Below are positions 18,143-51,820 of a stretch of 64,000 nt of DNA, piece by piece. The position numbers and the translations under genes are program-made. This DNA is from a virus. The stretch covers positions 94,652-158,651 of the IMG/VR virus record IMGVR_UViG_3300047089_000307; one strand, 5' to 3'. The notes under the pieces are model-generated. The model was not told where the DNA came from, ran no database searches, and saw only the letters and a program-made list of their open reading frames with translations. Each line of letters starts with the position of its first letter. Position 1 is the stretch's first letter.

Positions 18143-19753
18143 TCCCGTGCCTGCCTAGCCAGGCCCGTCCTAGCCGAGCCATTCCTGCCGGGGCGGGCCG
18201 CGCCCAGCCCTGCCTAGCCTTGCGACGCCTGCCGAGCCTTGCCCAGCCGCGCCACGCCAAGCCCTGCCTGCCCAGCCGAGCCTAGCCCAGCCGCACCACG
18301 CCTAGCCATGCCTGCCACGCCAGACCTTGCCCTGCCTAGCCATGCCTGCCGGACCTCGCCTCACCTAGCCAAGCCATGCCGCGCCTGCCCTGCCGTGCCG
18401 CGCCGGGGCCTGCCGAGCCTAGCCATGCCTGCCTAGCCGAGCCCTGCCGAGCCTAGCCATGCCATGCCTGCCAGTCCTGGCCTTGCGTCACCCCGCCTTG
18501 CCCCGCCGTGTCCATCCCTTTTACGCCGGATGCTGCTGCTCCCGTGCCTGCCCGGCCACGCCAGACCTCGCCGCGCCTAACCTCACCTGCCCCGCCATGC
18601 CAGACCTTGCCGCGCCTAACCTCACCTGCCGCGCCAGACCTCGCCATGCCCTGCCGTGCCTAGCCGTGTCCATCCCTTTGCGCCGGATGCTGCTGCTCCC
18701 GTGCCTGCCGCGCCGCACCTGGCCATGGCTAACCTCACCGCGGCTGCCGAGCCGATCCCAGCCGTGCCTAGCCGTGCCGGCCCTGACCTCGCCTGCCCTG
18801 CCGCGCCGCGCCTGACCCAGCCAGGCCACGCCATGCCTGCCGCGCCGACGCGCGCCACCCCGTGCCAAGCCACGCCCTGCCTGCCGGTCCCCGCCTAGCC
18901 CCGCCTGGCCATGCCAGCCCGAGCCATGCCTGCCTTGCCAGACCTTGCCTCGCCGTGCCTTGCCGTGCCTGCCCGGCCTCGCCACATCGCGCCATGCCTC
19001 TCCTTGGCCAGCCTCGCCATGCCTGCCCCGCCTGGCCTCGCCGGACCCTGCCCTGCCGCGTCCATCCCTTTACGCCGGATGCTGCTGCTCCCGTCCCTGC
19101 CGGTCCCGGCCTAGCCTCACCGAGCCTGACCTGCCTGACCGCGCCATGACGCACCGAGCCTTACCGGTCCCTGCCTGCCATGCCACGCCACCCCGTGCCA
19201 AGCCCTACCTGCCCTGCCGCGCCGCGCCCTGCCGTGCCGTGCCTCGCCTGCCGCGCCTGGCCCTGCCGCACCGCACCATGCCACGTCCATCCCTTTACGC
19301 CGGATGCTGCTGCTCCCGTGCCGGCCAGACCTGCCGAGCCATGTCGTTCCGCTCCGCGCCATGCCCTGCCTGCCAAGCCACGCCCCACCCCGCCGAACCG
19401 AGCCATGCCTGCCAGGCCGTGCCGAGCCGCGCCTAGCCACGCCACGCCATGCCTGCCGGGCCATGACGCACCGCGCCTTGCCGCGCCACACCGTGCCTGC
19501 CCCGCCTTGCCAAGTCCATCCCTTTGCGCCGGATGCTGCTGCTCCCGTGCCTGCCCCGCCTAGCCAAGCCTTGCCACGCCGCGCCTTGCCTGCCGGGCCG
19601 GACCCCGCCGGGCCGGACCATGCCGAGCCGCACCATGCCGTGCCTGCCGGACCGGACCACGCCACGCCGCACCATGCCGTGCCTCGCCTGCCGCACCAAG
19701 CCTCGCCGGACCCCGCCTTGCCATGTCCATCCCTTTCAGCCGGATGCTGCTGC
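18113..19753 (-). ncRNA. non-coding GGY-NN pentamer array (putative guide-RNA array, VIPR-type vrRNA)
   Basis: Minus strand reads GGC AA GGC GG GGT CC GGC GA GGC TT GGT GC GGCA...; blocks separated by GGCA; 38-nt repeat at 18510, 18668, 19060, 19285, 19514 and a partial copy at 19725; downstream of a Cas7-like gene. Confidence 0.85.
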
Positions 19754-20203
19754 CTTCTTCACCTGCGCCTCGTGCTCGGCGATGACCTCGGCAAGCTCCT
19801 GCCAGAACTCGGGGTAGTCGCGGTACCGCTGGGCCATGGAGCGGACCTCGCGGCGGATGCGCAGCAGGATCAGGCCCTGCTCCTGCGTCGTGAGCGAGGT
19901 GACGCTGGAGTACGTGCCGGGCGGCGAGGGGATGCCGATCATCCGGTCGGCCACGTACTTGCGCATCATGACCGCGCGCTGGCCGCCGGACGCGACCTCG
20001 CGGACGACGGCCACCCGGTAGCTGCGGATCAGGCCGCGGGCCTCCTCCAGGCGGCGCTGCGCCGCGGCGATGGCGTCATCCCAGGTGAACAGCCCGTGCA
20101 GCGCGCTGTCCTCCGGCCGTGCTGCCGCCACGACCTCATCGGCGTGCAGCTTGCCGCGGGAGTCCTCCAGCCCCTTCAGGGCCTTCAGTACCTCATCCCT
20201 CAC
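19736..20203 (-). CDS. accessory protein coupled to the Cas7-like gene
   Basis: GTGA overlap, AAGGAG RBS; LHGLFTWDDAIAA...EARGLIRSY motif; stop codon lies inside the first array repeat. Confidence 0.85.
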   Translation of the reverse strand: MRDEVLKALKGLEDSRGKLHADEVVAAARPEDSALHGLFTWDDAIAAAQRRLEEARGLIRSYRVAVVREVASGGQRAVMMRKYVADRMIGIPSPPGTYSSVTSLTTQEQGLILLRIRREVRSMAQRYRDYPEFWQELAEVIAEHEAQVKKAAASG

Positions 20204-20892
20204 AGGACTATCTCCTTGACCTCGGCGTCGTCCGGCACCCGGAACGTGCCGTAGGAGCCAGTATTGGATTCCTTGCTGGCCGGGCGCCACTCGCCGATGC
20301 CCGCGAAGCCGGCGGCGTCCACCAGCGCGATGACGGACTCCAGCGTCAGCGAGTTGCGCACCCAGACCACCTCCAGCACCGCCGACCACGGCCAGTACTC
20401 CGGCCGGAAGCGGATGTCGGCGACGCCGGTCTCGTTGCGCGCGTAGTCCTGGCGCATCACCGCGGTGGCCGGGACGAGCGCCGACTCCTCGCCGGTCCAC
20501 TCCCCCCAGACGGGGACCAGCAGCGTGCGGTTCGCCTGGTCGGTGCCCGGCTCGCCGTTGACGAAGATCATCCGGCGCAGGTCCGTCATGGGCAGCTTGG
20601 AGCCCTTGAAGAACCGGGCCGCGTCCACGATGGCGGCCTTGAAGCCGACCGAGGGGAACGCGGGGGCGCCGCCGGGGAGCAGGTGCTGGGCGTCGCGGAA
20701 GTTCTGCTCCGGGTCCTTCGGCTGGCGCTCGACGGGCTTGCCCATCTGCCGGTCGAGCATGATCTGCTGGGCCTTGGCGCTGAACTTGTTGGTGATGAGC
20801 GGGGTGAGGCCCTGGACGGGCACCCGGATCATGGAGCGGCCGAGCCGCTGGAGCGAGATCGCGCCCGTGGTGGTGGCCTTCGCTGGGGGCAT
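20200..20892 (-). CDS. stand-alone Cas7/RAMP-like protein (Vipr-like effector)
   Basis: V.GLTPLI, FPSVGFKAAIVDAA, RPEYWPW and C-terminal G-rich loop AGFAGIGEWRP...GSYGTFRV typical of the RAMP fold; no other cas genes. Confidence 0.8.
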   Translation of the reverse strand: MPPAKATTTGAISLQRLGRSMIRVPVQGLTPLITNKFSAKAQQIMLDRQMGKPVERQPKDPEQNFRDAQHLLPGGAPAFPSVGFKAAIVDAARFFKGSKLPMTDLRRMIFVNGEPGTDQANRTLLVPVWGEWTGEESALVPATAVMRQDYARNETGVADIRFRPEYWPWSAVLEVVWVRNSLTLESVIALVDAAGFAGIGEWRPASKESNTGSYGTFRVPDDAEVKEIVL

Positions 20893-25330: not shown

Positions 25331-26737
25331 TCAGTAGGACCGACCGAGAATGGCGATTATTCCCGGCTCGTCGTCGGCGTCCGGCAGGCCGCCGTCCGGA
25401 CGGAACAGGCACCGTACGGAGACCCCGGAAGCGTTCGCCTTCGCTTCGCCGTCAAGTCCGACGCGGTCCCAGGGCACCCGCGCCCAACCAGACGCCGACG
25501 CCTCGATGGCCTCGTCCACCGTGGACACGTCGACGGTCTTCGCCTCGCGGTAGGCCAACGCCTCGTCGTACAGCGACTGCTGATCTTTCTCCAATGCGGC
25601 GACCACCGTCGACATCACATCGTCGAATACGACGGGCTCCTTCGTGCCACTGACTCGCCGCACCACCGTCACCCGGCCTTCGGCGATATCGCGGGGACCG
25701 ACCTCCACCCGAATCGGATAGCCCTTCAACTCGGCATCAATCGCCCGGCGCCCGTATGGCGTGTCGACCCGGTCGTCCAAGCTGACCCGGACGCCCGCAT
25801 CACGCAGTGCGTCCCGCAGCTTGTGCGCGGTGGCGACGACGCCTTCACCGGCCGTCACGGCCACCACGAGCGCTTGGATCGGGGCGAGGCGGGGTGGCAC
25901 CCGCAGACCGTTGTCGTCGCCGTGGCACATGATCATGCCGCCGACCATCCGCGTCGAGCTGCCCCATGACGTCGTGTTGCAGAACTCCTGCCCGCCGGAC
26001 GCGCTGGTGAACTTGATGTTGAAGGCGCGCGCGAAGTTCTCGGTGAACTCGTGCACGGTACCCATCTGCAGCGCCTTCCCGTCGCGCATCATGCCCTCGA
26101 ACGTGTAGGTGCAGGTCGCCCCGGCGAAGCGTTCCTTCACCGTCTTCCGGCCGAGAACGACTGGCATCGCGAGTACGTTGACCATGTAGTCCCGGTACAC
26201 CTCGTGCAGGATCCGGCGCGCGAACGCCCGGGAGTCGGCGAAGTCCACATGGGCGGTGTGGCCCTCTTGCCAGAGGAACTCAGACGTTCTCAGGAAGATC
26301 CGCGGCCGCATCTCCCAACGCACCACGTTCGCCCACTGGTTGAGTAGCAGCGGCAGGTCGCGATAGCTCGAAATCCACTTGGCCATCATTTCGCCGAACA
26401 TCGTTTCGCTCGTGGGGCGCACGACCACGGGTTCGGGCAGTTCCTTGCCGCCGGCGTGTGTCACGAGGGTGAGCTCCGGGCTGAAGCCCTCCACGTGTTC
26501 CGCCTCGCGTGCGAAGTAGTTCTCCGGAACAAACAGCGGGAAGTACACGTTTTGTGCTCCGGTCGCCTTGATCCGCGCCTCGACCTCGGCCACCATCCGC
26601 TCCCAGATCGCATAGCCGGCCGGGCGTACCACCATGGTCCCGCGCACCGGCCCGTTGTCGGCCAGTTCGGCCTTCGCGATCACATCCTGGTACCAGCGGG
26701 GAAAGTCTTCGCCTTGAGGAGTAAGTACTTGCGCCAT
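25331..26737 (-). CDS. proS: prolyl-tRNA synthetase (archaeal/eukaryotic-like type)
   Basis: FPRWYQDVIAKAELAD.GPVRGTMVVRP, VVRPTSE, NQWANVVRWE, FLRTSEFLWQEGHT, ERFAGA, SWGSSTR, HGDD.GL, C-terminal GRSY; likely start MAQVLTP. Confidence 0.95.
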   Translation of the reverse strand: MAQVLTPQGEDFPRWYQDVIAKAELADNGPVRGTMVVRPAGYAIWERMVAEVEARIKATGAQNVYFPLFVPENYFAREAEHVEGFSPELTLVTHAGGKELPEPVVVRPTSETMFGEMMAKWISSYRDLPLLLNQWANVVRWEMRPRIFLRTSEFLWQEGHTAHVDFADSRAFARRILHEVYRDYMVNVLAMPVVLGRKTVKERFAGATCTYTFEGMMRDGKALQMGTVHEFTENFARAFNIKFTSASGGQEFCNTTSWGSSTRMVGGMIMCHGDDNGLRVPPRLAPIQALVVAVTAGEGVVATAHKLRDALRDAGVRVSLDDRVDTPYGRRAIDAELKGYPIRVEVGPRDIAEGRVTVVRRVSGTKEPVVFDDVMSTVVAALEKDQQSLYDEALAYREAKTVDVSTVDEAIEASASGWARVPWDRVGLDGEAKANASGVSVRCLFRPDGGLPDADDEPGIIAILGRSY

Positions 26738-26909
26738 GACCGCAAAGCGTACCCTGCTCAACTTCTTGTTAAAGACTTTTACAGACAGTAATACTGATTG
26801 CCTGGTCATGAGCACACGCCTGGCGTCGACAACCACGACCCCAACAGACCTGCGGGAACCTTGCGATTCTCCTTGCACCGCCTCGTGCACGCGGAGTACG
26901 TTCGGGGCC

Positions 26910-27098
26910 ATGTCGCTCCTCGCGCCCCCGCTCGTCTCCCTGGCCCGGAAGAAGGCCGCCTACACCAGGCATTACGGCAGCGAGGACGAGCGCGCCCTGG
27001 CCGCGGCCTCGCAGCTGCGCGTGGCCCGCCTGCTGGCCGAGATCGACAGCCTTACCCAGGACGAGCGCACGCAGCTGCTCGCCGCGCTGACCGCGTAA
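26910..27098 (+). CDS. small hypothetical protein upstream of the primase gene
   Basis: MSLLAPPLVSLARKKAAYTRHYG...; high GC3. Confidence 0.5.
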   Translation: MSLLAPPLVSLARKKAAYTRHYGSEDERALAAASQLRVARLLAEIDSLTQDERTQLLAALTA

Positions 27099-27185: not shown

Positions 27186-30100
27186 ATGAGCGCGACGGGC
27201 GGGGCAGGAGTGTTCTCCGGTGCCGCCGCGGACTACGTCCTGGCCGGCTGGCCGTGCGTGATCCCGGTCCCGCCGGACGCCAAGTTCCCCCCGCCGGCGG
27301 GATTCACCGGGGCCACCGGGACGGACACCACCACCGAGGACATCGTGGGCTGGGCCGGCAACGGGATGTCCGGGTTCTCCGTCGCGCTGCGGATGCCGGA
27401 CGGCGTCATCGGCATCGACGTGGACGACTACGTGAAGAACGGCACCGTCAAGGCCGGCGCCGCCACGCTGGCGCAGCTTGAGGCGGAGCTGGGCGCGCTG
27501 CCGCCGACCTGGTCCTCGACCGCGCGGGGCACGCCGGCCGGGCCCGGGCTGTCCCGCATCATGTTCTTCCGGGTGCCCGCCGGCCGCTACGCCACCCGGT
27601 GCGGCGCCGACATCGACGTCATCCAGCGCCATCACCGCTACGCCGTGGTCGCGCCGTCCCCGCACGCCGGCGCCGGCGCCCGCTACCGCTGGTACCGCCC
27701 GGACGGCACGCCCGCCATGGACGGGGAGGTACCGCGGCCGGGCGACTTCCCGCTGCTGCCGGACTCCTGGGCCAAGCGGCTGGCGGAAGGCGCCACCACT
27801 GCCGGGCCGCCGCCCGCTGACCCCGCCAGCGGGCGGGCGCTGCTGGACTGGCTGCTCGCAGACCAGCGGATGCCGTGCGCGGAAGCCGACGAGGCGGGGC
27901 GCGCGGCGGCGGCCGAGCTGGCAGGAGCCCCGGCCGGCTCGCGGCACGACGCGATGACCGGGCACGTCTACCACGTCATCGCCCTCGGCGCGGAGGGCCA
28001 CGCGGGGGCCGGGTCGGTGCTGGGCTGGCTGGAGCAGCGCTGGGAGGAGCTGACCGGGGCGGAGAACCGCGGCGGGGAGTTCGACCGGATGCTGTTCACC
28101 GCCGCGCGCAAGGCGGCGGGCCGGGCGATCCCCGACCCGTACGCCGACCCGTGCATGGACGCCCGGCCGCTGGGCTGGGACGCGCTGGCCGCCCCGCTGG
28201 ACGACGACGCCAGCGCCGACGACGCGCTGGAGGCGCCGGCCCAGTGGTCACCGAGGCACGCCTGGGGCGCGCACCTGTTCGCCACCTCCGCCCAGCTGGA
28301 CTCGGTGCTGGCCCGCGACATCCTCATGCGCACCTACCCCGGGCTGCGCTACGCCGCCGACGCCGGGACCTGGCTGCTGCGCGGCCCGCTGCGCTGGGAG
28401 GCCCGGCCGGGCGAGCAGGCCCGCTGGGCGGTGGAGGAGATGTTCTGGCTGCTGCCGCGCGGTGACTCAGGAGCCCCGGAGGGCACCGAGCCGCACGAGC
28501 AGGCCAAGCGGCGCGCCCGGTTCGGCACCAACGCCGGGGCCGGCGCCATCGCGGCCAAGATGACGGCCCAGGTGATGGGCGGGCACCACCCGTGCTCGCT
28601 GGACATGGCCGGCCTGGACCATGACGCCGAGATCCTGTGGGCCGGCGGCTACCCCTACGACCTGCGGGCCTGCGGGAGCGGCCCGGTGCAGGCCGCGCTG
28701 AGCCTGGAGACCGTGCACATGCACAGCGCCGGGTGCGCGCCGCGGCGGGGGGCGACGCCGCTGTGGGATGCCTTCCTGGCAGCCGTCTGGCCAGATCCGG
28801 AGGTGCGCGCGTGGGCCGTCCGGGTGCTGGCGGTCACGCTGACCGGGTACAGCGACAAGGCGCTGCCGATCCTGCTCGGGCCGACCAACCGGGGCAAGAC
28901 GCAGGTGATCGCGCTGCTGATGTCGGTGCTGGGCAGTTACGCGCACGCGGCCGACCCGCGGCTGCTGGCCCCGGCCGACCGCAGCCACGCCTCCATCGTG
29001 CACGCGCTGAAGGGGCGCCGCTGCTCGTTCATCGATGAGGCGCCCCGGTCCGGGCAGCAGGCCCAGGAGCGGCTCAAGCAGCTGACCGGCGGCGGGGAGC
29101 TGACCGGCAACCGGATGGCCGAGAACCCGATCACCTTCAAGCCCACGCACACGCTCATCCTGACGGCCAACCCCGGGTCGGAGCCGAAGCTCACGGACGG
29201 GGCCGTGCGCAGCCGGGTGCGGCTCATCCCGTGCGAGGGCGACCCCGAGGCGGTGCGCGCGGCCCGCGCGGCGATCGGCCCGCTGGCCGGCCCGGCCTGG
29301 CGCGCGGAGGCGCCGGCGGTGCTGGCGATGATGATGGCGCAGGCCGCCGCGTGGCTGGCGGACCCGGAGTCGGCCTCCACCGAGCGGGCGCCGCTGTGCG
29401 TGCGCGCGGCGGCGGACACCGCGGCAGCCGCGCAGGACCTGGCGTACGCGTGGCTGACCGAGGAGTGCGAGCACTGGGAGGCGGGCACGAAGGCGGGCCA
29501 GCTGTACCAGGAGTTCGTCGCCTGGTGCCGCCGGGTCAACGTCGCCCCGCATGACATCCCCAAGATGACGGCGTGGGGACTGCGCCTCAATGACCTGGGG
29601 TACCTGCCGCAGAAGCGCCGCGACGCCAATTACCGGCAGCTGCGCGTCCGCCTGGGCGGCTACGACGGCGGCCTCGCACCCTCCACGGTGCCCACGGCAG
29701 CACCCTCCGCGGTGCCCGCGGCAGCGCCCGTACCCTCCACACTGCCCTCCGCGGGACTCGCTGCGCCCGTACCCTCCACGGTGCCCACGGCCGGGAATCC
29801 GGCTGCAACTCCCGCGGTGCCCGCTGCACCCCCCGCGACGGTGGAGGGTACGGCTCCTGTGGAGGGTCTGGTGGAGGGTACGTGGAGGGTTGACGGCAAA
29901 CCCTCCACACTGCAAAACCCCAGGTCAAACCCTCCACAACTATCCACTGTGGAGGGTGTGGATACCCTATCGCCTGTTATACGCACGCACACACGCACAC
30001 ACACACACACACACGTAAGTGAATACCATCCAACCCTCCACACTCTCCACAACCCTCCCCCACCTGCGGAAACGCATTTTGAACCCTCCACAGACCCTCC

Positions 30101-31874
30101 GCAACCCTCCACGCCCCCCGCAGACCCTCCGCAGCTACCCTCCACGGCCACCGGGACCGTCGCCTTCGACCTGGAGGGCGGCAGCGCCGACGAGCTGTTC
30201 ACCTACCGGCCGCACGACGAGCGCGGGTACGTCCGGCTGGCCGGCAGCCTGACCGCGGGCGGGGCGCCGGTCATCACGGGCGCGCCCGCGCTGCTGGAGC
30301 GGCTGGCCGCGGCGGGCGAGATCACCGGGCACAACATCCTCGGCTTCGACCTGCCCGCGCTGGCCTGGCACTGCGGCGCGGACTTCGAGGCGCTGGCGGC
30401 GAAGGCGAAGGACACCGAGCTGATCGCCCGGCAGGCGTGGCCGCCGCGGTCGCGGGAGGGCGGGCACTCCGCGGACGGCTACGGCCTGGACGCGGTGGCG
30501 CAGCGCCTGGGCATCCCGGGCAAGACTGATGACCTGGCCCGGCTCAAGCGCAGGCACGGCGGCTACGACAAGATCCCGCTGGACGACCCGGAGTACCTGT
30601 CGTACCTGGAGGGCGACCTGGCGGCCACGGCGGCGGTGTCCGCGATGCTGGGCAACGACGCCTACACCGTGCGCGAGCACAAGCTGGCCACGCTGGCGGG
30701 CCGGATGACGCTCAACGGCTTCCTGGTCGACGTCCCCCTGCTGGAGCAGCGGATAGCGCAGGGCCAGGAGCGCAAGGCCGCGGCGCTGGGGCTGCTGCAT
30801 GACGGCTGGGGCCTGCCGCTGACGAGAACACTGGCCCGGGGCCGCGGCAAGGCCCGGCATGAGGTGACGGAGGAGCTCGACTCCCCCCTGAGCGCGGAAT
30901 CCGGCAGGGAGTGGCTGGCGGGCGTGCTGGAGGGCTACGGGGTGACGGTGCCGCGGACGCCGAAGCAGGGCAAGCCGGCGGTGGGCGACGAGCAGCTGAG
31001 GGCCATCGCCGCTGACCCGGCCTGCCCGCAGCCGCTGCGGCAGCTGATCGCGTGCGTGAAGATCGTGGTGGGCACGCGGACGGTGTACCAGACGGCCGCG
31101 GACTGCCTGGCCCCGGACGGGCGCGTGCACCCGGGCAACAGCTTCCGGCAGGCGTCCGGGCGCTGGTCGGTGACCAACCCGGGGCTGACCGTCTTCGGCA
31201 AGCACGGCGGGCGGCATGCCGAGCGCGACATCTTCGTCCCCGACCCCGGCCACGTGCTGCTGTGCTTCGACCTCAAGCAGGTGGACATGCGGGCGATGGC
31301 CGGGCACTGCGGCGACCCCGCCTACATGGCGCTGTTCGCCCCGGGCCGGGACGCGCACGCGGAGATCGCCGCGCAGGTGGGCATCAAGCGCCAGGACGCC
31401 AAGGCGATCGGGCACGGCTGGAACTACGGGCTGGGCGCGAACCGGATGATCCGCAACGGCCTCGATGAGGCGCTGGTGCGCAAGTTCATCGCCGGGATGA
31501 CCGAGCGGTTCCCGGTGCTGATCGCCTGGCGCGAGGAGATCCGCGCGGCGGGCAAGGCCGGCGACGTGCTGGACAACGGCTTCGGCCGCCGGATGGCGTG
31601 CGACCCGGAGCGCGCCTACACCGTGGCCCCGGCGCTGATGGGCCAGGGCGGGGCGCGGGACATCATGGGCGAGTGCCTGCTGCGGCTGGACCGCTCGCTG
31701 TGGCCGCTGCTACGGGTGATGGTCCACGATGAGATAGTCTGCTCGGTTCCTAAAGAGGATGCTGTTGACGTAGCGCGGCAAGTTACCAGGGCGATGACAT
31801 GGACCTGGCGGAATGTCCCTATACTTTGTGATCTCAGTGGCGGAAGCAGCTGGGGAGAGGCGTCTGCAAAGTGA
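27186..31874 (+). CDS. fused Prim-Pol primase / D5-like SF3 helicase / family A DNA polymerase
   Basis: IGIDVDD prim-pol; GPTNRGKT, FIDE, LKQLTGG helicase; FDLE, GHNILGFDL exonuclease; SGRWS, FDLKQVDMR, KAIGHGWNYG, VHDE PolA motifs. Confidence 0.92.
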   Translation: MSATGGAGVFSGAAADYVLAGWPCVIPVPPDAKFPPPAGFTGATGTDTTTEDIVGWAGNGMSGFSVALRMPDGVIGIDVDDYVKNGTVKAGAATLAQLEAELGALPPTWSSTARGTPAGPGLSRIMFFRVPAGRYATRCGADIDVIQRHHRYAVVAPSPHAGAGARYRWYRPDGTPAMDGEVPRPGDFPLLPDSWAKRLAEGATTAGPPPADPASGRALLDWLLADQRMPCAEADEAGRAAAAELAGAPAGSRHDAMTGHVYHVIALGAEGHAGAGSVLGWLEQRWEELTGAENRGGEFDRMLFTAARKAAGRAIPDPYADPCMDARPLGWDALAAPLDDDASADDALEAPAQWSPRHAWGAHLFATSAQLDSVLARDILMRTYPGLRYAADAGTWLLRGPLRWEARPGEQARWAVEEMFWLLPRGDSGAPEGTEPHEQAKRRARFGTNAGAGAIAAKMTAQVMGGHHPCSLDMAGLDHDAEILWAGGYPYDLRACGSGPVQAALSLETVHMHSAGCAPRRGATPLWDAFLAAVWPDPEVRAWAVRVLAVTLTGYSDKALPILLGPTNRGKTQVIALLMSVLGSYAHAADPRLLAPADRSHASIVHALKGRRCSFIDEAPRSGQQAQERLKQLTGGGELTGNRMAENPITFKPTHTLILTANPGSEPKLTDGAVRSRVRLIPCEGDPEAVRAARAAIGPLAGPAWRAEAPAVLAMMMAQAAAWLADPESASTERAPLCVRAAADTAAAAQDLAYAWLTEECEHWEAGTKAGQLYQEFVAWCRRVNVAPHDIPKMTAWGLRLNDLGYLPQKRRDANYRQLRVRLGGYDGGLAPSTVPTAAPSAVPAAAPVPSTLPSAGLAAPVPSTVPTAGNPAATPAVPAAPPATVEGTAPVEGLVEGTWRVDGKPSTLQNPRSNPPQLSTVEGVDTLSPVIRTHTRTHTHTHVSEYHPTLHTLHNPPPPAETHFEPSTDPPQPSTPPADPPQLPSTATGTVAFDLEGGSADELFTYRPHDERGYVRLAGSLTAGGAPVITGAPALLERLAAAGEITGHNILGFDLPALAWHCGADFEALAAKAKDTELIARQAWPPRSREGGHSADGYGLDAVAQRLGIPGKTDDLARLKRRHGGYDKIPLDDPEYLSYLEGDLAATAAVSAMLGNDAYTVREHKLATLAGRMTLNGFLVDVPLLEQRIAQGQERKAAALGLLHDGWGLPLTRTLARGRGKARHEVTEELDSPLSAESGREWLAGVLEGYGVTVPRTPKQGKPAVGDEQLRAIAADPACPQPLRQLIACVKIVVGTRTVYQTAADCLAPDGRVHPGNSFRQASGRWSVTNPGLTVFGKHGGRHAERDIFVPDPGHVLLCFDLKQVDMRAMAGHCGDPAYMALFAPGRDAHAEIAAQVGIKRQDAKAIGHGWNYGLGANRMIRNGLDEALVRKFIAGMTERFPVLIAWREEIRAAGKAGDVLDNGFGRRMACDPERAYTVAPALMGQGGARDIMGECLLRLDRSLWPLLRVMVHDEIVCSVPKEDAVDVARQVTRAMTWTWRNVPILCDLSGGSSWGEASAK
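29675..30150. repeat. CCCTCCAC/GTGGAGGG iteron-like cluster with (CA)n tract; putative replication origin
   Basis: About 15 copies of CCCTCC(A/G)C in both orientations, lower GC, CA dinucleotide run near 29985-30013. Confidence 0.65.
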
Positions 31875-38517: not shown

Positions 38518-41500
38518 GAGCTGTCCTCTCCCTCGTTGCCTGCCGCTATCCCGGGAAGGCCGAATGCCGCGATATGACGTGCTATGGCCAGGTCAAGGGC
38601 GGTGAAGTCGTCTTCGTTCATGGGCAAAGTCCTCTTTCTTGGTATTTTGCAGTATAACCCTGACCGGGCAAGGGAATGCCCCGTACCCGGGAAACGGGCA
38701 CGGGGCACTCGGCTAGCGGGGTCAGTTACCGTGCGGGCTGCCAGCCAGGGCAGCCGCAGCTGCATTCCGCGGTGCTGCTGTGCACGTGGCCGCAGGCAGC
38801 GCATGCGGGGGCGGCGGGCGGGGTCATGGTGATCGCTCCTCCTCTCCTGTCTCAGTAGTGGCGGCGCCCTGGGTGAGGGCGTCCAGGACCAGGTTCCGGG
38901 CGGCTAGCCGGGGCAGCAGCGCCGACACGGTCAGGTCCGTGATCGCCTCGCCCCAGTAGTACGGGCCGAATACCCGGCCGGGCAGCCGGGAGAACTCCAG
39001 CGTGACGCGCTCCCCCCGGTAGGACCGGGCCCGGGTGACGGTGACGGTGCCCGCGATCATGTCAGTCAGCCTCGGGGCCGTCATCCTCGTCCTCCTCGCA
39101 TTCCGGCGGCTCCAGGTACTCCGGGTGGTCCAGCGGGGGCCTGCCCGCATCCCAGCCCAGCAGGGCCCTGGCCTCAGTCACCAGGTCGTTGTAGGTCTCC
39201 CAGGCGCGGTCGTTCTCCACCACGTAAGCCCGGCCGTCAGCCGTGGTGCCCTCGTTGTCCAGTCGCAGGGCCGCGATGCCCATGATGAACCGCAGCGCCT
39301 CCTGCGCGTCCAGGCGGGTGAAGTCCAGGGCTGAGTGCCCGTCCGCGCTGCGCAGGCGCGTGGCGTCAGTCGTCATTGCCGTGCCTCCTGTCCTCGTGCG
39401 GGCACGCCCCCGCCCAGCTCCGTACCCGGGCGATGAGCAGCTCGTTCCACCGCGCGCTGCCCTTCTCCGGCATTTCCTCGCCCTCGTCCAGGTCGTAGCC
39501 ATCGATATCGGTGCCGGCGTACTGGGCGATGATGATCTCGTCCAGGCTGGCTCCCGGGTGGTCCAGCAGGTGCATGACGCTGTTGACGGCCAGGTTGAGG
39601 ATGTCGTCCTGCGCGATGGTCTCGCTGGATTCACCCTCGTGCTCCGATAGCAGGCTGGCGGCTGCGTTCAGGGCCGCGGAGACTTGCTCGCGGGTGTAGG
39701 CCAGGGTCGTTCCCTGGCTCGCCAGTGCGGCGACCCGGGCGAGCAGGCTGAGGTAATCCTCGTGCCCTGCCCGGGTCCCGCCCGGGTTATCGCGGAGCCA
39801 CTCGCCGAATGCCTTGGCCATCAGGCTTCTCCTTCCCTGCGCTCCGGCCGCGGTGCGCCGCAGTTACCGCAGGTGCCGTCTTCCACGGGGCTGCGGTAGC
39901 CGCACGCGTGGCCTTCCTCCAGGCGGTTGCGGCATTGCCAGGCGAACCTGGCCTTGTCGAGGAGCTGGTCCAGGGTGTCTGACTCGTAGTCGTCTGCGAC
40001 GTTCCGCAGCCGGCCCAGGATGCCGCCCGGCTCCCATGGCCCAGGCCCTGCTGAGGCCACGGCCACGTCCGTCCATTCGGAGGTGTCGTGGTTCCCGTAG
40101 TTGGCGGCGTCATCAAGCGCGAATTCGACGGCGCTGAGGATTCCTGCCTCATCGGTTCCGTCCGGGGCCTCGACTGTGACCAGGATTGCCTTCTTCATCT
40201 CACTCACCTCCCGTCAGCGTGACGCAGCCGGCGCTGTTCCCGTTGGCGTCCAGGATGAGGGCGCGGAAATCAGGGATGACTGCCCAGGATTCCATGTCGT
40301 CCTCCATGCGCTCCACGACCCGGGTGACGGTGCGGTACACGTCGTCTTTCGTGATCATGGCGTCATCGCCGAGCGTGATGCTGATCTCAAGTTTCCGTGG
40401 CATTTTTCCTTTCCTTTCAGGTAGCGACGTCCAGGGTTACGAGGACTATGTCGTACGAGCAGCCGTCAGGTGCCTCCGCTGACGTGTCCTTCCACGTCAG
40501 CGGGTTTACTCCGTTTTCGTGCTCCTGGCAGGCGGTGCGTGCCTTCTCTTCGTCAGAGAAGCCGCCTATTACGCCGGATTTATGCCCGTCCGGGTAATCG
40601 TGCAGTGCAATGTAGATATCCATCTCTTCTCTTTCTCTTCTTCAGGCTGAGTGCCTGCGACCGCGCACGGGAAATTCCCGCCCGCGATCGCCAGTGCTCA
40701 GTTACTTTTTCCTGGCCTCGTCCGCCTCGCGGGCCAGGGCCGTGTCCTCGGGGCCGTCCGGGTCGTACCCCCCGGCGGTGAGCCACGCGAGGGCGCGCTC
40801 CCGGTTCGCGCCGCGGTCCTTGAGCATCCGGAACGCCTCGCGTACCGGCGTGGAGTACCCGCCCTGGATCATGACGGCGTGCATGGCCGCCTTCTCCGGA
40901 TCGTGGAATCCCAGCTCGTCGGCGAAGAAGCCGCCAAGCTCGTCAGCGAAATAGCCCATTCCCATTCCCATTCCCATTCCCATTCCCTTGTCCCCTTTCT
41001 CAGTCTCCGTGCGGGTGGACCAGGATGGCGACGATGGCCAGGGCCTGCCAGTGGTCCAGGCCGGTGATCACCGGGATCAGGCCCCGGTCACAGGTCAGCT
41101 CGCTGACGGCGTAGCCGCGATCTCCGGTCAGGGCAGCGATCAGCGCATTCCCGTGCACGCGCCATTCCCTTTCATGCGGGTGACCCGGGCAGTGGGCGGC
41201 CCCGCATTCGCAGGGGACTGCGGGGTTATCGCAGTCGTCTACCTCGCAGGGAGCCGGGCCTGGGCGGTGCAGGGTGCTCATCGTCCCTCCTCCTCCTCCT
41301 GCGCCTCGATGGCGTCGGCCAGGGCCGTGAGCACGGGCAGCGGGTCCCGGTCGGTGAGCGCCAGCAGGGCCGCGGTCATCACGTCCGGGCTGGCGCCGCT
41401 CAGCAGGAGCAGCGCCTTGGCCCGGGGGTGGCGCAGCGGGCTGCCCGCTACCGGGTCCTTGTCGCCCTTGCGCCAGACCGGGAGTACCAGCGCGGTGCGT

Positions 41501-45391: not shown

Positions 45392-45967
45392 TCATGAATG
45401 ACTCCATCTCTTCCTGTTCACGATCATGGAAATAGTCGCCTTACTCACGCAGAATTCGTCAGCTAGCATCCTTTGCTTTTCTCCAGCCGCGTGTCTTTGC
45501 CGGATTTGCGATACGTCTTTCTCGGTTAGCTTTGCCATCGGGTTCTGGCTGCCTGCGTTCGCAGTGCCGTCACGTACCCGGTCCCCCTGGTTCTCCGCTG
45601 GCGTTCCGTAGCGCAAGTTGGCTACGCAGTTCACCAGGTTTCCCTCAGGGCCATGGCAGCACTGCATGCCCGCAGGGCGCTCGCCAAGGTGAGCGCGAGC
45701 GACCAGCGTGTGCACCATGTGGTGGTGGATGATGCCGTCCGCGTCGGTGAGGGTCACCTGCCAGTAATTCCTGTGCCAGCTCACCGGACTGGATGAGGCG
45801 CGGTACTGCCTGATGATCCCGCCGGGGCGCGTCCACGGATACGTTTTCCCTTTCCGTGACCTGCGCCAGATGATGCGATCAAGGGACCGTACGGTCCCTT
45901 GATCGCTCACCTCGTACAGTCCCTCGTACCCGACTACCGGGAGCCACTCACTGGTCTTTGTGTTCAC
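45392..45967 (-). CDS. NUMOD4-HNH homing endonuclease
   Basis: EWLPVVGYEGLYEVSDQG.VRS, VHTLVA, NLRYGTPAEN, AKLT HTH. Confidence 0.9.
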   Translation of the reverse strand: MNTKTSEWLPVVGYEGLYEVSDQGTVRSLDRIIWRRSRKGKTYPWTRPGGIIRQYRASSSPVSWHRNYWQVTLTDADGIIHHHMVHTLVARAHLGERPAGMQCCHGPEGNLVNCVANLRYGTPAENQGDRVRDGTANAGSQNPMAKLTEKDVSQIRQRHAAGEKQRMLADEFCVSKATISMIVNRKRWSHS

Positions 45968-46507
45968 TCCAGTTAAAATACACTCTGGGCGCGTGCGTGA
46001 ACTCCAGCGATCCCAGCGTGCCGTCTGACTTGCGCGAGACGACCACGTACGGCGCCTGGAATCCCAGCACGTCGAATTCCTCTTGCAGCTGCTCGGTAGT
46101 CCACGTCTGCGTGGGCCATTGCCGGCTCAGGTCCCGGTGCGCCTGCGCGGCCTCGGGGGACTCGAACATCTTGCCGTCGCTCATGCGCCTGCCTCCGGCT
46201 TCTTCACGTGCCCCTGGAGGAGGAGCATGGACGCCGTGCGCCCGTAGCTCCCCTGAAGCTCCCAGGCCAGGCCGCTGTCCACCAGCTCCTGGAAGAAGGC
46301 GATGATCTCGTCATCGCTCATCTCCCCGTCCTCGTAGGCCATGATCTTGTCCACTAGGTCGTTCTTCACCGCGCTCACGGGATTGCCCTTTCTGTCTCTT
46401 AGAGTATCTTGCCTCGTCCCTGACGGGACAGTGAAGCGCCCGGTCCCTGGCGGGGGACCGGGCGCTCGGACTGCCGTGTCAGCAGTGACGTGGTATCTTG
46501 GAGTCTT

Positions 46508-46603
46508 AGTATGCGGTTGGGCAGGGCATGGCAGGACATGGGCTGGTGCGGCAGGCACGGAGAGCAGGCCCGTTTTCCTGAGTACGGGGAAGCGGGCCTG
46601 CTC
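46508..46603 (+). ncRNA. orphan GGY-NN unit (putative single guide RNA)
   Basis: TATCTT -10, then AGTATGC GGT TG GGC AG GGC AT GGC AG GAC AT GGG CT GGT GC GGCA GGCACGGAGAGC plus hairpin. Confidence 0.7.
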
Positions 46604-46608
46604 CTGTG

Positions 46609-47913
46609 TTAATCGACGCGCCCGCCCATTGACCACGCCCGGACACTCGGCGGGAAGTTCCCCGCCTGGTGCATGGGGACGGTATTTCTGACAAGCTCAT
46701 GCCAGGTCTTGCCGTCTCCGAGCTGGATCGTGGCGTGCTCGGCCGGACGCCGGACGTGGTACAAGCGGCCCCTCGCGTACGTGCGGCCGTTCAGCATCCG
46801 CATCTCGGTGACGCGGTGATTTACCTGGAGCACCAGTGTCATTCGCTGGGACGGGCCCGGCAGGTCTCGCGTCATCATCCCGGGCCGCGCGATGGCGAAC
46901 ACGTCGCCTTGCCTGAGTACGGCCCGGCCCGCTGCCTCGGCTGCCAGGACCTCCGGCGGCTTGAGTGCCTCCCGGGCCGCGGCTACCGTCTGCGGCCGGG
47001 CACCGCGGGGCAGCTCAGCCAGGAAGTACAGCGGCCGAGGCTCGTTCGTGTCGAACGCGGACAGGAAGTAGGCGTGCCTGCGGGTTTCATGGCCCTGGTC
47101 CCGGCCGAGGTAGCGGGTGTAACTGGCGCGGAACACCGACTCGCCGAGCCAGTGCCGCTGCTCGGTCCAGTGGTACAGGCCGTCCGCGCCTGGCGTGATC
47201 TCCTGGTAGTGGTCTTCCAGCGGCGCCTGGTATTCCGGGCCGGGTACCGGGAAGTTCTGATGGCCGTTCAGCGCGGAGTGGCGGCTGACGTGCCAGCCGC
47301 TGCCGCCGCCGATGGCCGAGTCCGGGTATGCCTTCCGGCCGTCATCCGCGACGGGCGGCGTGATTACCGCTCCGGTGGCGTCCCGCCAGGTGTGCTGCTT
47401 GCGGTGGCTCTCCGGCACGCCGTCCAGCGTGATCGCGGAGTGATCCTCCCTTGTCCATCGCTCGGGAAGCACCTCCACGGGGACGATCGTCTCCATGCTG
47501 ATGCCCGCCTCGCGCAGCGCGGAGAACGGCACGATGACCCATGGCGTGCCGGACTGCTGCGCGGCTTCGCGCATCATGGCGTTGTGGTTATTGGTCCGGC
47601 CGAAGCCGCCGCGGCCCCACCAGTCGCCGTTCAGTACCCACAGCTTCCGTGACCCGTCCTCGTTCAGGATCAGGCGGCCCAGCGGGAAGTGGCTTCCGTA
47701 GGACACGATCTCCGTGATCACGCCACCGTGGCTGTGGTAGTACAGGCTCGACCTGCCGCCGTCCGGGAACCGTGCCCGCAGGTGCCCCTTCTTGCCGTCC
47801 GGCTCGGTGCCATGCGGCTTCCCGGCGTACTGCACGAACCGGGGGATAATGTAGCTTGCGCCGCGACTTTCTTTTTTCATTTCATTTTCCCTTTCTTTTT
47901 CGTCACTCGCCAT
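46609..47913 (-). CDS. hypothetical phage protein (RQGDV motif)
   Basis: 434-aa ORF; VLRQGDVFAI, HxEH motif. Confidence 0.7.
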   Translation of the reverse strand: MASDEKERENEMKKESRGASYIIPRFVQYAGKPHGTEPDGKKGHLRARFPDGGRSSLYYHSHGGVITEIVSYGSHFPLGRLILNEDGSRKLWVLNGDWWGRGGFGRTNNHNAMMREAAQQSGTPWVIVPFSALREAGISMETIVPVEVLPERWTREDHSAITLDGVPESHRKQHTWRDATGAVITPPVADDGRKAYPDSAIGGGSGWHVSRHSALNGHQNFPVPGPEYQAPLEDHYQEITPGADGLYHWTEQRHWLGESVFRASYTRYLGRDQGHETRRHAYFLSAFDTNEPRPLYFLAELPRGARPQTVAAAREALKPPEVLAAEAAGRAVLRQGDVFAIARPGMMTRDLPGPSQRMTLVLQVNHRVTEMRMLNGRTYARGRLYHVRRPAEHATIQLGDGKTWHELVRNTVPMHQAGNFPPSVRAWSMGGRVD

Positions 47914-50269
47914 TGCAGAGGAATGTCACGCCATTCAGCGTCACTTCCTCGTAGGAGGTTTCCAGGAGACCGTCCTGGAGATCCCGGGCGAACCTTTTCG
48001 CTCGCCAGTACGGGGTCTCGGTGGCTTCTCCGTAGGCATCGTGGCTGCGGTATTTCGCGTACGTTGCCCAGTAGCTCTCGCGGACAACGGAGTCAGCCTT
48101 GCCGATGGCCGCGCGGAAGTCTCGCAGTTCCCTCAGCTCTTCGCTCAGCCCGGCGACTTCGTCTAGCGCGCCGTCATCCTGTCCGCCGGCCAGGAGCAGG
48201 AAGATCCTCGCCCGGATTCCGGTGACTCGCTCGTCCACGTCACGGGCGTACAGGATGTCCTCGCGGGACAGGTCGTGAATGTCCTTTGCCATGTGCCTTT
48301 CCTCTTCTCTCAGGCGCGGTTGAAGGCGACGAACCACCCGTTGCCGTGCGTGTCCTCGCGGGAGCAGTACTCCTGCGCGCTTTCCAGCGTGACGTTCTCT
48401 GCTATCAGCAGCTTTTCTTCCCCGGAGCGGAAGACATGGAGGTTCCGGTCGCCCGTTCCTTCTTCCGGTACGGCAGGGAGCCCGTACTTCGCCAGCACTT
48501 CGCTTTTGCCCACTTCTCCTTCTCTCTTTGCCGTGCCCTGACCGGGCGGCAAAGCGCCCCGTGCCTGGTAACCAGGCACGGGGCGCTCGGGCTGGGCGGT
48601 CAGTAAGCCGGGCCGAATACGGTGTCGTCCCAGCGGTCGGTGAACAGCTTCTCGTTCTCCTTCAGCTGCTCGCGCGCCCGGCGCAGTTCCGGCGACACGT
48701 AGTCCGGGTCGCCGTGCGCGCTGAGTGCGGCCCGGTTAGCCTCCCAGTCCGCCTGGTCAATGGCAGACCATGCCTGCGGCTGGTGACCGCTGGCCAGGGT
48801 CTCGCGAACCTCGGCTATGGCTGCGCGTGCTTCCCTGGCCTGCTCTTCCGTGAGCCCGTGCCAGGGTCGCTCCTGCTGCTCCGGTGACGGCCTGAGGGGC
48901 TGCCGCCGGGGCACGCGCATCAGCGGCGCGCACGACCTGCCGTTCGCCAGGCATTCCGGGGCGACCCGGCTACTGCACTGGCACCGGTCAGGCACGGACG
49001 GAAGCTCGCTGAACTGGTTCCCGGTCTTCTCGTGGAAGTCGGCCGCGTCCCGGTAGCCCCAGCTGGGACCGGTGGCCGCGCCGAACCGCGCGCCGGGGTC
49101 GGCGGCGAATATCTCCGCCATGAACCAGCCCCACTCATGCCACGTTGCCGCCCACACCGCCTCGCCGCGTGCCCGCTCGCTGGCCGCGCCGCGGTTGCCG
49201 CTGTTCTTGTACCGGCGCACTCGCAGGACCTTGCCGTGCTGGTCTCGCGTGCCGGGCGGCAGGGAGTGCTTGTCCAGCGTGCCGAGCTGCACCTGCACGG
49301 AGCGGGCGTGCGTCCGCGATGGCCGCGTGGCGAACGATGCGGTGAACACGATGTCCGGCGTTGCCAGGCCGGCCGCCTTCACGCGGTTCAGCGCGCTGTG
49401 GACCTGCTGCTCGGACAGGCTCGTGTAGAGCCTCACGAGATTGCCCGGCCTGGCAGCGTGCCAGCCTGGCGCACCGCTGGCGACACGTAATCCGGGTCCA
49501 GGTACGGGTCGCCTGGCCGCAGTGCCTCTTTCATGGCCTGCCACTGGACGAGCAGTGCCAGGAGCCCTACCTGAATCCGCTTGCGCAGGGTCCACTCGAT
49601 CATTTCCCTTTCCTTTCTGTGTGATTCGTTGCGTGATTGACCGGACAAGGAAGCGGCACCGGCTCGCTTGCGCGAGGCGGTGCCGCTCGGCTAACCAGGT
49701 CAGGTGGTGGCTTACGGGTAGTGGTAGGACGTAATGGTCTTCAGGCCCATGGATTCAGCGACCTCCTCCAGGGCGGCGGCGTAGCCGTCCCGGTAAGCCG
49801 GGTTTCGCCATTCGGCGCTCTTCTCGGCCTCTCGCAGGGCGGTCGTCATCGCCTCCGCCAGGCTGGATAGCTGGTACTCGGCTGTGTCGGCCATGCTCAT
49901 GTCGTTTCCCCCTCTTCGATAGCCGGCACCGGAAGCGGCTCGCCCCGGTACGTCCCGATGAGCGAGTACCGCCAGTTGATGTGCTGCGCTGTGTCCGGTA
50001 GCCTCACGGGCGGCCCGTCCGTCCCGAAGTAGGCGGCCGGGCTGCCGTAGCTGGCGATCCGGATGTCGCCGGCGTCCCGGTGAGACAAGTCGTGGTTCTG
50101 GAAAACGGCCACGCCGTCTCCGCGGGCCAGCCACTGGTTGACCTTCCCGGTGATCTCCCCGGTTCCCTCCGGCCCGTATTCCTCGAAGAGGCAGGCAGCC
50201 AGTTCTCCGGCGGTGAATTCCGTTGCCATGGGTTTTTCCTTTCTCAGTATCTTGCGGTAGTATGGAGGG

Positions 50270-50344
50270 AGTATGCGGTATGGTTTGGCCAGGCAAGGTC
50301 AGGTGAGCCCTGGCGGGGCCAGGCAGGCGTGGGACTCCACCTGG
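50270..50344 (+). ncRNA. orphan GGY-NN unit (putative single guide RNA)
   Basis: TAGTAT -10, then AGTATGC GGT AT GGT TT GGC CA GGC AA GGT CA GGT GA GCC CT GGC GG GGC CA GGCA GGC GTGG-GACT-CCAC. Confidence 0.75.
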
Positions 50345-51820
50345 TCACAGCACGTCTGTGGCCAGGTGGTGGCCTAGCCTGAGTGCGTTGGCCATGACGG
50401 TCAGCGCAGGATTCGTTGCTCCTACGGACGGCATGAACGAGCTGTCCGTGACGTACAGGTTGCGCACGTCCCAGGTCTGGCAGAACGGGTCCAGAACGGA
50501 TGTTGCCGGGTCGGTGCCGAATCGCAGGGTCCCCGCCTGGTGGGCCACGGCCGTCAGCGGCATCATCTTGCGCAGGAACAGCGCGTCCACGCCGGAAGCC
50601 CAGAGCATCTTCTTGGTGGCCGCGTACAGCTGGTGCGCCGCGCGCTGGCTCGTCTGCGTGACCGACAGCCGGATGGTGCCGTCAGCGTCCAGCGTGACCC
50701 GGTTCTCCGGCCGGGGCAGGTCCTCGGTGGACAGCCAGAAGTCCAGCGCGTGCGCGGCGACCTTCTCCAGTGACCAGCCCGGGGCCAGCGCGGCCAGCCG
50801 GGACTCGCCCCTCATGGCTTCTGCTGAGCTTTTTCCCAGCATCTGGATGCAGCCCAACCCCTCGTTGTAGAAATCGTTGATGCATAGCGTCTTCTGGAAG
50901 ACGGTCGGGTTCGGTTCTGGAGTAATGGCCATGACCGCTTGCGACAGGTGGGACATGTAGTTGCGTCCTACCTGTCCAGAGCTGTTGGCCAGTCCTGACC
51001 GCAGTAGGATCGCGGCGCTGTTGACCGCGCCGGCCGCCAGCACGATGATGTTCGCGCTGTGCAGCTCGCGGTATTTCTCGCCGTCCTCGTCCGTGCGCAC
51101 TACGTCCACCCAGCGTGCCTGGCCTCCGGGGGCTATGATGCGCCTGACTCTCGTATTCGTCATCAGCGTGACGTTGTCCATCCCCAGCAGCGGGCGTACC
51201 GCGACCGTCTCCGCGTCGCTTTTGGCTCCCAGCTGGCAGGCGAACCCGTCGCAGGTCCCGCACAGGATGCAGCCCTTAGCCGTCAGCACGCCGGCCGGCG
51301 CGTGGAACGGGTGGTAGCCCGCCCGGGTCAGGTCATCGGACAGCTGCTGGATGCGCGGCTCGTGCGGGACGGCCGGCAGCGGGTACTGCCTGCTCCAGCT
51401 TCCCTCCGTGGGGTCCTCACCGTGGTGCCCGCGGACGGAGTACATCTGCTCGGCCTCGTCGTACCATGGCCCCATGTCGGTGTAGCCCAGCGGCCACGCA
51501 GGGGAGATCCCGTCTGTCTCCTGGCGGGCCTCGAAGTCACGCGGGCGCAGCCGGAACAAGGCTGCGCCGAACAACTTGGTGGCTCCGCCTACGTAGTAGT
51601 GCGCCTGCGGCTGGAATGGCTTCCCGTGCTTATCGCGCCAGGTGTCCTTGCTGACGTACCGGCCGTTGCCGAACACTTCCTTTGCGTCCCAGTTCTCCGG
51701 TTCGCGGGGCAGGAATCCTCCGCGCTCGATGATGGCGATCCGCTTGCCCGTCTTTGCTAGCACGCTGGCCAGCGTTCCGCCGCCGGCCCCTGAGCCGACG
51801 ATGATGACGTCGTAGTGCAT
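50345..51820 (-). CDS. GMC-family FAD oxidoreductase
   Basis: DVIIVGSGAGG, VGGATK, LAAGAVNSA, VGRNYM.H, AHQAGTLRFG, NPALTVMANALR. Confidence 0.93.
   Translation of the reverse strand: MHYDVIIVGSGAGGGTLASVLAKTGKRIAIIERGGFLPREPENWDAKEVFGNGRYVSKDTWRDKHGKPFQPQAHYYVGGATKLFGAALFRLRPRDFEARQETDGISPAWPLGYTDMGPWYDEAEQMYSVRGHHGEDPTEGSWSRQYPLPAVPHEPRIQQLSDDLTRAGYHPFHAPAGVLTAKGCILCGTCDGFACQLGAKSDAETVAVRPLLGMDNVTLMTNTRVRRIIAPGGQARWVDVVRTDEDGEKYRELHSANIIVLAAGAVNSAAILLRSGLANSSGQVGRNYMSHLSQAVMAITPEPNPTVFQKTLCINDFYNEGLGCIQMLGKSSAEAMRGESRLAALAPGWSLEKVAAHALDFWLSTEDLPRPENRVTLDADGTIRLSVTQTSQRAAHQLYAATKKMLWASGVDALFLRKMMPLTAVAHQAGTLRFGTDPATSVLDPFCQTWDVRNLYVTDSSFMPSVGATNPALTVMANALRLGHHLATDVL

Follow-up and report, generated by a model that had tools for sequence, protein, structure and literature searches.

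The locus analysed here raises the question of why a phage that encodes its own VIPR protein and guide array should carry, about 30 kb away, a single guide with a promoter apparently of its own, and against which DNA this guide is directed. Guides of the VIPR system consist of alternating GGY and NN, of which the NN bases pair with DNA and every third target base is skipped, and the outcome is repression (bioRxiv 10.64898/2026.04.26.720920). The window, i.e. the whole stretch of DNA that was analysed, represents the terminal 64 kb of a 158,651-bp virus record (GC ~69%) that is 75% complete. Coordinates of the features discussed below, together with the decoded guides of related phages, are collected in Table 1.

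Table 1. Features of the window and decoded solo guides of related phages (fractions are matched NN bases out of those read)
Feature	Position	Strand	Remarks
Staggered vrRNA array	18150..19722	-	~30 guides in blocks between repeated short hairpin linkers
vap gene, 155 aa	19736..20203	-	overlaps vipr stop; winged-helix-like N-terminal domain
vipr gene, 230 aa, RAMP	20200..20892	-	Cas7/Csm3-like fold; PHROG family shared with SUSP1 Vipr
Near-match of the 46515 guide	46215..46234	+	11/14, weak; within adjacent gene (~46181-46380, -)
Second solo vrRNA unit	46508..46610	+	seven pentamers between leader and end as at 50277; long hairpin
P0121, 110 aa, divergent neighbour	49897..50229	-	phage family, 448 clusters at E <= 0.001
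Recoded target site in the own P0121 gene	50080..50106	-	14/18; L148 has CTG and GGT, this phage TTG and TCT (GGT changed to TCT)
Candidate -10, TATCTT	50248..50253	+	predicted from sequence; precedes most solo guides of relatives; counterpart TATAAT in L143
Candidate -10, TAGTAT	50258..50263	+	predicted; choice of the initial annotation; L005 has TATCGT here
Leader AGTATGC	50270..50276	+	conserved; common to the 46515 unit and guides of L144, L146 and L148
Solo vrRNA guide region	50277..50321	+	nine GGY/NN pentamers; whole guide unit 50277-50332
GGCA-GGC-GT-GG end (GGCA-GGY-NN-GG type)	50322..50332	+	1-nt-overlap junction as in the main staggered array
14-bp hairpin	50337..50369	+	z -3.35; overlaps GMC stop codon; sequence differs among solo guides
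GMC oxidoreductase gene	50345..51820	-	convergent on the 50277 guide; read by solo guides of relatives
Site matched by the L005/L006 solo guide	50721..50746	+	18/18, 20/20 with lead unit; in GMC gene
Guide of L005			reads GMC gene, 436 bp away; own 14/18, best rival 18/18 (this phage)
Upstream guide of L143/L144			reads GMC start, 165 bp away; own 15/18, best rival 16/18
Downstream guide of L144			reads GMC end, 149 bp away; own 13/16, best rival 16/16
First guide of L146			reads adjacent 423-aa gene, 537 bp away; own 13/16, best rival 15/16
Second guide of L146			reads intergenic repeat, 102 bp away; own 14/16, best rival 15/16
Guide of L148			reads GMC gene of rivals, 17/20; own copy beyond contig end

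The Cas7-like gene that the initial annotation had noted 30 kb from the solo unit corresponds to vipr and is the single match to the Vipr family in the whole 75%-complete record, 29.4 kb from the guide at 50277. Its product falls into phrog_4652, the family that also holds the Vipr of SUSP1, and comparison of the two proteins by hhalign gave 96.7% over the C-terminal 57 columns. The structural model (pLDDT 89.9) retrieved Csm3 and Cas7 chains as top PDB matches (E 6e-7), and with its RRM, thumb and G-loop and its location outside a cas locus the protein is a stand-alone RAMP of the VIPR type. The family of the overlapping vap gene is present in 78 of 82 vipr loci, in line with the two-gene operon of this system. 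Vap itself had no match in Pfam, PDB sequences or Foldseek and no detectable sequence similarity to SUSP1 vap1; it was modelled as winged-helix-like at middling Z scores (<=6.7), and no nuclease fold was found in the model. The array is interrupted at GGCA/GGY, where neighbouring units overlap by 1 nt, and thereby has the staggered architecture shown in fig. S18 of 10.64898/2026.04.26.720920. Its repeated linkers (18500-19750, minus strand) are ~29 nt long with a CATCC/GGATG stem, the first copy overlapping the vap stop codon; they lack an Rfam match and are possibly a processing signal. For the guides of the main array, no convincing target was found in the own genome or in 1.7 Mb of fetched loci, four merged blocks being left out of the latter search. 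Homologues of Vipr with ~37-39% identity occur in 33 records of a phage collection, mostly Mycobacterium and Gordonia phages, where they are annotated as hypothetical. Between the vipr locus and the solo units, the window also encodes a protein with class II tRNA synthetase core and anticodon-binding domains (25331-26911, minus strand) and a 1562-aa protein with a C-terminal family A DNA polymerase domain and DUF5906 in its middle (27186-31874, plus strand).

All elements previously described for the solo unit are present: TAGTAT, AGTATGC, nine pentamers with the NN series AT TT CA AA CA GA CT GG CA, the GGCA-GGC end and a hairpin. The GGY triplet is perfect in eight of the nine pentamers and reads GCC in the remaining one. 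Nine pentamers followed by a terminal GGCAG unit lie within the 9-16 GGY/NN repeats of VIPR vrRNAs. Such periodicity is not a chance product: ~4e-5 runs of this kind are expected per genome, none appeared in 20 second-order Markov simulations, and apart from the array, units of this type occur just twice in the whole 158,651 bp, at 50277 and 46515. Two details of the earlier description have to be revised. First, TATCTT is at least as good a candidate for the -10 element as the proposed TAGTAT, and the choice between these predicted boxes is uncertain. Second, the hairpin extends beyond 50344, the end given for the unit, and is doubtful as part of a minimal guide. Its 3′ arm consists of the final codons of the convergent GMC oxidoreductase gene, and since the related contig L143 has a similar hairpin at this place without a full guide, it is probably not a guide-specific tail; the conserved 3′ element of solo guides is the GGCA-GGY junction, and the hairpin behind it varies between relatives. 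Searches of the unit with Rfam, ARAGORN and a sigma-70 scan gave no match. Taken together, positions 50277-50332 on the plus strand almost certainly constitute a genuine VIPR guide gene.

For the second solo unit, the local near-match was equalled by permuted guides in 91 of 2000 trials, and no close rival allele was found, the candidates L149, L150 and L032 being too distant. The NN series of this unit corresponds to the antisense strand of the small gene beside it, in which a Ser codon is TCC where the guide implies AGN. A gene for a NUMOD4/HNH endonuclease (45392-45967, minus strand) lies ~550 bp from this guide.

What the guide at 50277 reads became apparent under the published skip of one nucleotide. 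With boundaries taken over from the initial annotation, and thus set before the target was known, the codons spelled by the guide correspond to a conserved motif of the P0121 family, to which the divergently oriented neighbouring gene belongs. The best match to a P0121 homologue was 17/18 in the sister contig L148, followed by 16/18 in each of three further relatives (L004, L005 and L147), and none of 300 order-permuted guides scored 17. Skips of 0, 2 or 3 yielded 12-13/18 at most, compared to 17/18 with a skip of 1, and the base computed to be skipped in the target is codon position 3, so that the guide stands in the wobble register. The first unit is mismatched even in L148, 18/18 is reached in no homologous P0121 allele, and the mismatches of the relatives sit in units 1-2. 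On this sequence evidence, the P0121 homologues of related phages are the predicted target. P0121 itself received no assignment from Pfam, PHROG or Atlas. An exact search with the 18-base pattern returned three matches among viral contigs, which we treat as chance because none is a P0121 homologue, and periodic hits in five further P0121-bearing phages are likewise chance runs. The earlier interpretation of the unit as a guide is supported, in that its NN series decodes to a real homologous site under a 1-nt skip only; it overlooked three points, namely the published VIPR system, the target next door and the recoding of the own allele.

The phage's own P0121 gene contains a near-match to the guide at a distance of 171 bp, which ties for the best match in the genome; permuted guides reached 14/18 inside 1 kb in 10 of 2000 trials. 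The own gene and that of L148 differ at 7 of 333 nt and the encoded proteins at three residues. Four of the seven differences fall within the 27-nt footprint of the guide (P = 0.0012), three of these four affect read positions, and each of the three breaks a match in the own allele. With L148 as reference, the change from CTG to TTG is synonymous, and a Ser as encoded by the new TCT occurs naturally at this position in 18 of 125 P0121 family members. Both new codons, TTG and TCT, are rare in this genome (2.7% and 4%, respectively). Apart from the shared mismatch in unit 1, the own allele is mismatched in units 7-8 of 9. In a cryo-EM series, R-loops grew from the guide tail onwards, in the 3′ to 5′ direction (10.64898/2026.04.26.720927), and the own mismatches thus lie near the end of the guide where R-loops start. 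Moreover, the unit carrying TT reads a Phe, whereas Tyr stands at this position in 123 of 125 family members and Phe only in the own protein, in L148 and in one distant protein. Because the guide reads this lineage-specific residue, it appears to have been written against the allele of the lineage shared with L148. We therefore infer from the alleles an order of events in which Phe was gained in the lineage, the guide was then written against the Phe allele, and the own copy was subsequently recoded.

A near-match so close to the guide could also mean that the phage damps its own adjacent gene by imperfect pairing, all the more as Vipr represses from either strand (10.64898/2026.04.26.720920). 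The own match amounts to 78%, or 80% with the lead unit, which is close to the published cut-off of 80%, and partial self-repression is therefore possible. As the purpose of the guide, however, autoregulation seems improbable to us: clustered substitutions that create rare codons have carried the own allele away from the guide, own scores are below those of rivals in every relative where both can be compared, and the same slot is aimed at different neighbours in different strains.

The latter two points emerged from eight syntenic phage contigs that were fetched through their P0121 and GMC gene neighbours. Seven further solo guides, all distinct and with leaders and ends of the type described above, are present in them; six of these could be decoded (Table 1), the five-unit guide of L143 being left out as too short. 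All six beat 300 of 300 permutations. In five of five cases with a visible own copy, the own allele matched less well than the best rival allele, with guide boundaries of some relatives set by eye after a first pass and two of the margins amounting to a single base. Retrieval through neighbouring genes could favour matches to such genes, a bias that is limited because the top match of five of the six guides across the whole 158-kb genome falls into the homologue of their neighbour. Targeting can be reciprocal: the guide of L005 matches the GMC gene of this phage at 18/18, and the guide at 50277 matches the P0121 homologue of L005 at 16/18. The leader and the 3′ end are conserved across relatives and the NN content changes completely, as would be expected of separately promoted guides that are used in trans by the Cas7-like protein, the idea put forward by the initial annotation. 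At the 3′ end of the GMC gene, different guides occupy the slot in this phage, L005, L144, L146 and L148, and none is present in L004, L145 and L147. The 42-bp promoter-leader is common to this phage and L148 with one difference, followed by different guides. The fragments of the relatives are too short to show vipr, and a leader-plus-repeat search of viral and genome collections revealed no additional convincing solo guides of the clade.

Several further observations concern the surroundings of the slot. In L143, three pentamer-like units and a hairpin follow the GMC stop on the minus strand (~2281-2320), possibly a collapsed guide. A comparison of 50230-50245 with positions 130-500 of L148 shows that this phage lacks a 107-aa repressor-like gene, which in L148 separates the slot from the P0121 homologue and is also found in L004, L144 and L145. 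A microhomology deletion is suggested, because the junction falls in the shared GAGAAAGGA ribosome-site motif. The GMC oxidoreductase belongs to a phage clade with 68-86% identity and has cellular-type homologues at ~59%. Upstream of minus-strand genes, the window contains a repeated intergenic element at seven sites (44834, 46417, 51848, 53961, 57890, 58875 and 59587), composed of a conserved motif and a hairpin; it is also repeated in L005 and is read by the guide at 7423 of L146. In the same record, outside the window (~39,860-40,040), there are CRISPR-like repeats with a 72-nt period, and one of their spacers shares 17 exact bases with L146, a weak match (E 0.003).

That one promoter-leader precedes different guides, all reading sequence near the slot, raises the possibility that new NN series are copied in cis, from DNA or RNA close by, into an existing cassette. 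Such a guide would target its own genome at first, the own gene would then mutate, and any attack on relatives would be incidental. The TT for the lineage-specific Phe, which aims the guide at the allele shared by this phage and L148, would fit this scenario. Nevertheless, we consider it rather unlikely as the whole explanation. No acquisition enzyme was found, of 411 array-type guides examined as a control in other vipr loci only 15 matched local DNA at p <= 0.01, and a purely costly guide would be expected to be lost by deletion before a conserved motif is recoded. Writing in cis is not exclusive with the reading that we prefer below.

A further alternative is suggested by the geometry of the locus. 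Guide-target distances of 102-537 bp, the patchy occupancy of the slot and a target in the flanking gene of relatives that is matched less well in the own genome are reminiscent of the free-standing homing endonucleases seg and mob of T4, which are inserted beside their target genes and cleave them at distances of hundreds to thousands of bases (PMC2988022). By analogy, Vipr bound to a sister allele might provoke a break, a stalled fork or recombination, and repair from the genome that carries the guide might co-convert the recoded site together with the guide, resulting in RNA-guided homing or marker exclusion. This seems unlikely. Characterised VIPR represses and does not cut (10.64898/2026.04.26.720920), a conversion tract was not found, and this phage and L148 have the leader but not the guide in common. 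In addition, Vap models as winged-helix-like with no nuclease match, so that a cut-and-home drive is hypothetical; an unlinked or host nuclease could conceivably take part.

Finally, the unit could be a decayed, non-functional relic or a decoy RNA that merely sequesters Vipr. Solo vrRNAs of satellites act as decoys (10.64898/2026.10.15.759431), one of the nine GGY triplets is imperfect, and L143 has an apparent collapsed remnant at the slot. However, this phage encodes its own Vipr, the predicted promoter and the leader show no decay and are conserved, and the NN series spells one particular coding motif with a match well beyond chance expectation, all of which makes a relic or decoy very improbable.

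The reading that we favour, with a probability of roughly 60%, is that guide and immune allele form a module: the guide at 50277 would silence the P0121-family gene of co-infecting relatives, and the recoded own copy would escape. In this model, the cassette is transcribed from its own promoter and its product is loaded in trans on the Vipr filament of the phage. By pairing with a 1-nt skip, the guide would read codon positions 1 and 2, skip the wobble base and bind the conserved P0121 motif of sister phages, and from the published mechanism the gene or its operon would be silenced there. The own copy would escape because the bases recoded in it are read by units close to the guide's tail, where R-loops start. 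Since a guide would be safe only alongside a resistant allele, linkage of guide and target should be favoured, and guides a few hundred bases from their recoded targets would be the survivors of recombination among mosaic phages. Guide and immune allele would then behave as a single module, similar to a toxin-antidote pair. More speculatively, and with considerably less confidence, dispersed solo vrRNAs might be selfish RNA-guided drive elements of ~100 bp, each written against adjoining DNA, paired with a recoded immune allele and spreading as co-infecting relatives lose or convert the locus via Vipr in trans.

In many respects, the system resembles published VIPR (10.64898/2026.04.26.720920, 10.64898/2026.04.26.720927), with which it shares the GGY/NN guide, the 1-nt-skip code in wobble register, the vipr-vap two-gene operon in a phage, an array of guides with 1-nt overlaps and targets in other phages. 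It differs in that the guide at 50277 lies 30 kb from vipr, has its own predicted promoter and reads the gene of sister phages that adjoins it; the conserved pseudoknot tail was not detected at this guide. Moreover, no self matches of >=80% were reported for published VIPR, whereas the own site is here a recoded near-match at 78-80%. Solo, or orphan, vrRNAs have been described from F5 satellites and vipr-null SUSP1-family phages (10.64898/2026.10.15.759431). Like these, the present guide stands alone, more than 20 kb from any vipr, and is aimed at relatives, and a lower match to self than to rivals is common to it and to the vrRNA-targeting guides of that study. In contrast, the F5 and SUSP1 genomes are without vipr, borrow the protein of a rival and hit vipr, vrRNAs, satellites or REP decoys, whereas this genome has vipr and vap and its solo guides read ordinary neighbours whose own copy is recoded. 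Word searches of the text of 10.64898/2026.10.15.759431 revealed no neighbouring-gene rule for solo vrRNAs. With seg and mob of T4, associated with intronless homing and marker exclusion, the locus shares the intergenic element, the flanking-gene target in related phages and the patchy presence; unlike there, the specificity unit is an RNA of ~60-100 nt that would use a shared protein in trans, and no nuclease was identified. Unlike CRISPR-Cas and TIGR-Tas, the period is 5 nt, contiguous decoding (skip 0) gave only 12-13/18 and the guide is not part of a repeat-spacer array with contiguous spacer pairing. In the VIPR preprints consulted, we found no description of a vipr-bearing phage whose dispersed guides read a neighbouring gene with a recoded own allele; to that extent, the arrangement appears to be new.

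VIPR is a newly described, programmable and ancestor-like relative of Class 1 CRISPR. The locus at 50277 provides a datable case, in which a guide against a lineage-specific allele was apparently followed by own escape through three changes at read positions. The sister genomes on record include the sensitive allele, a different guide in the slot and an empty slot, so that guide acquisition, mismatch tolerance and discrimination between self and non-self can be tested on natural sequences, and the cultured Mycobacterium and Gordonia phages with Vipr homologues offer a bench model. In this clade, escape takes the form of Leu CTG/TTG, Ser AGY/TCN or ATG/GTG start-codon exchanges, which are among the few protein-neutral dodges of a wobble-blind code. 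Overall, our analysis suggests that a natural guide-plus-rescue module could shape gene exchange among phages.
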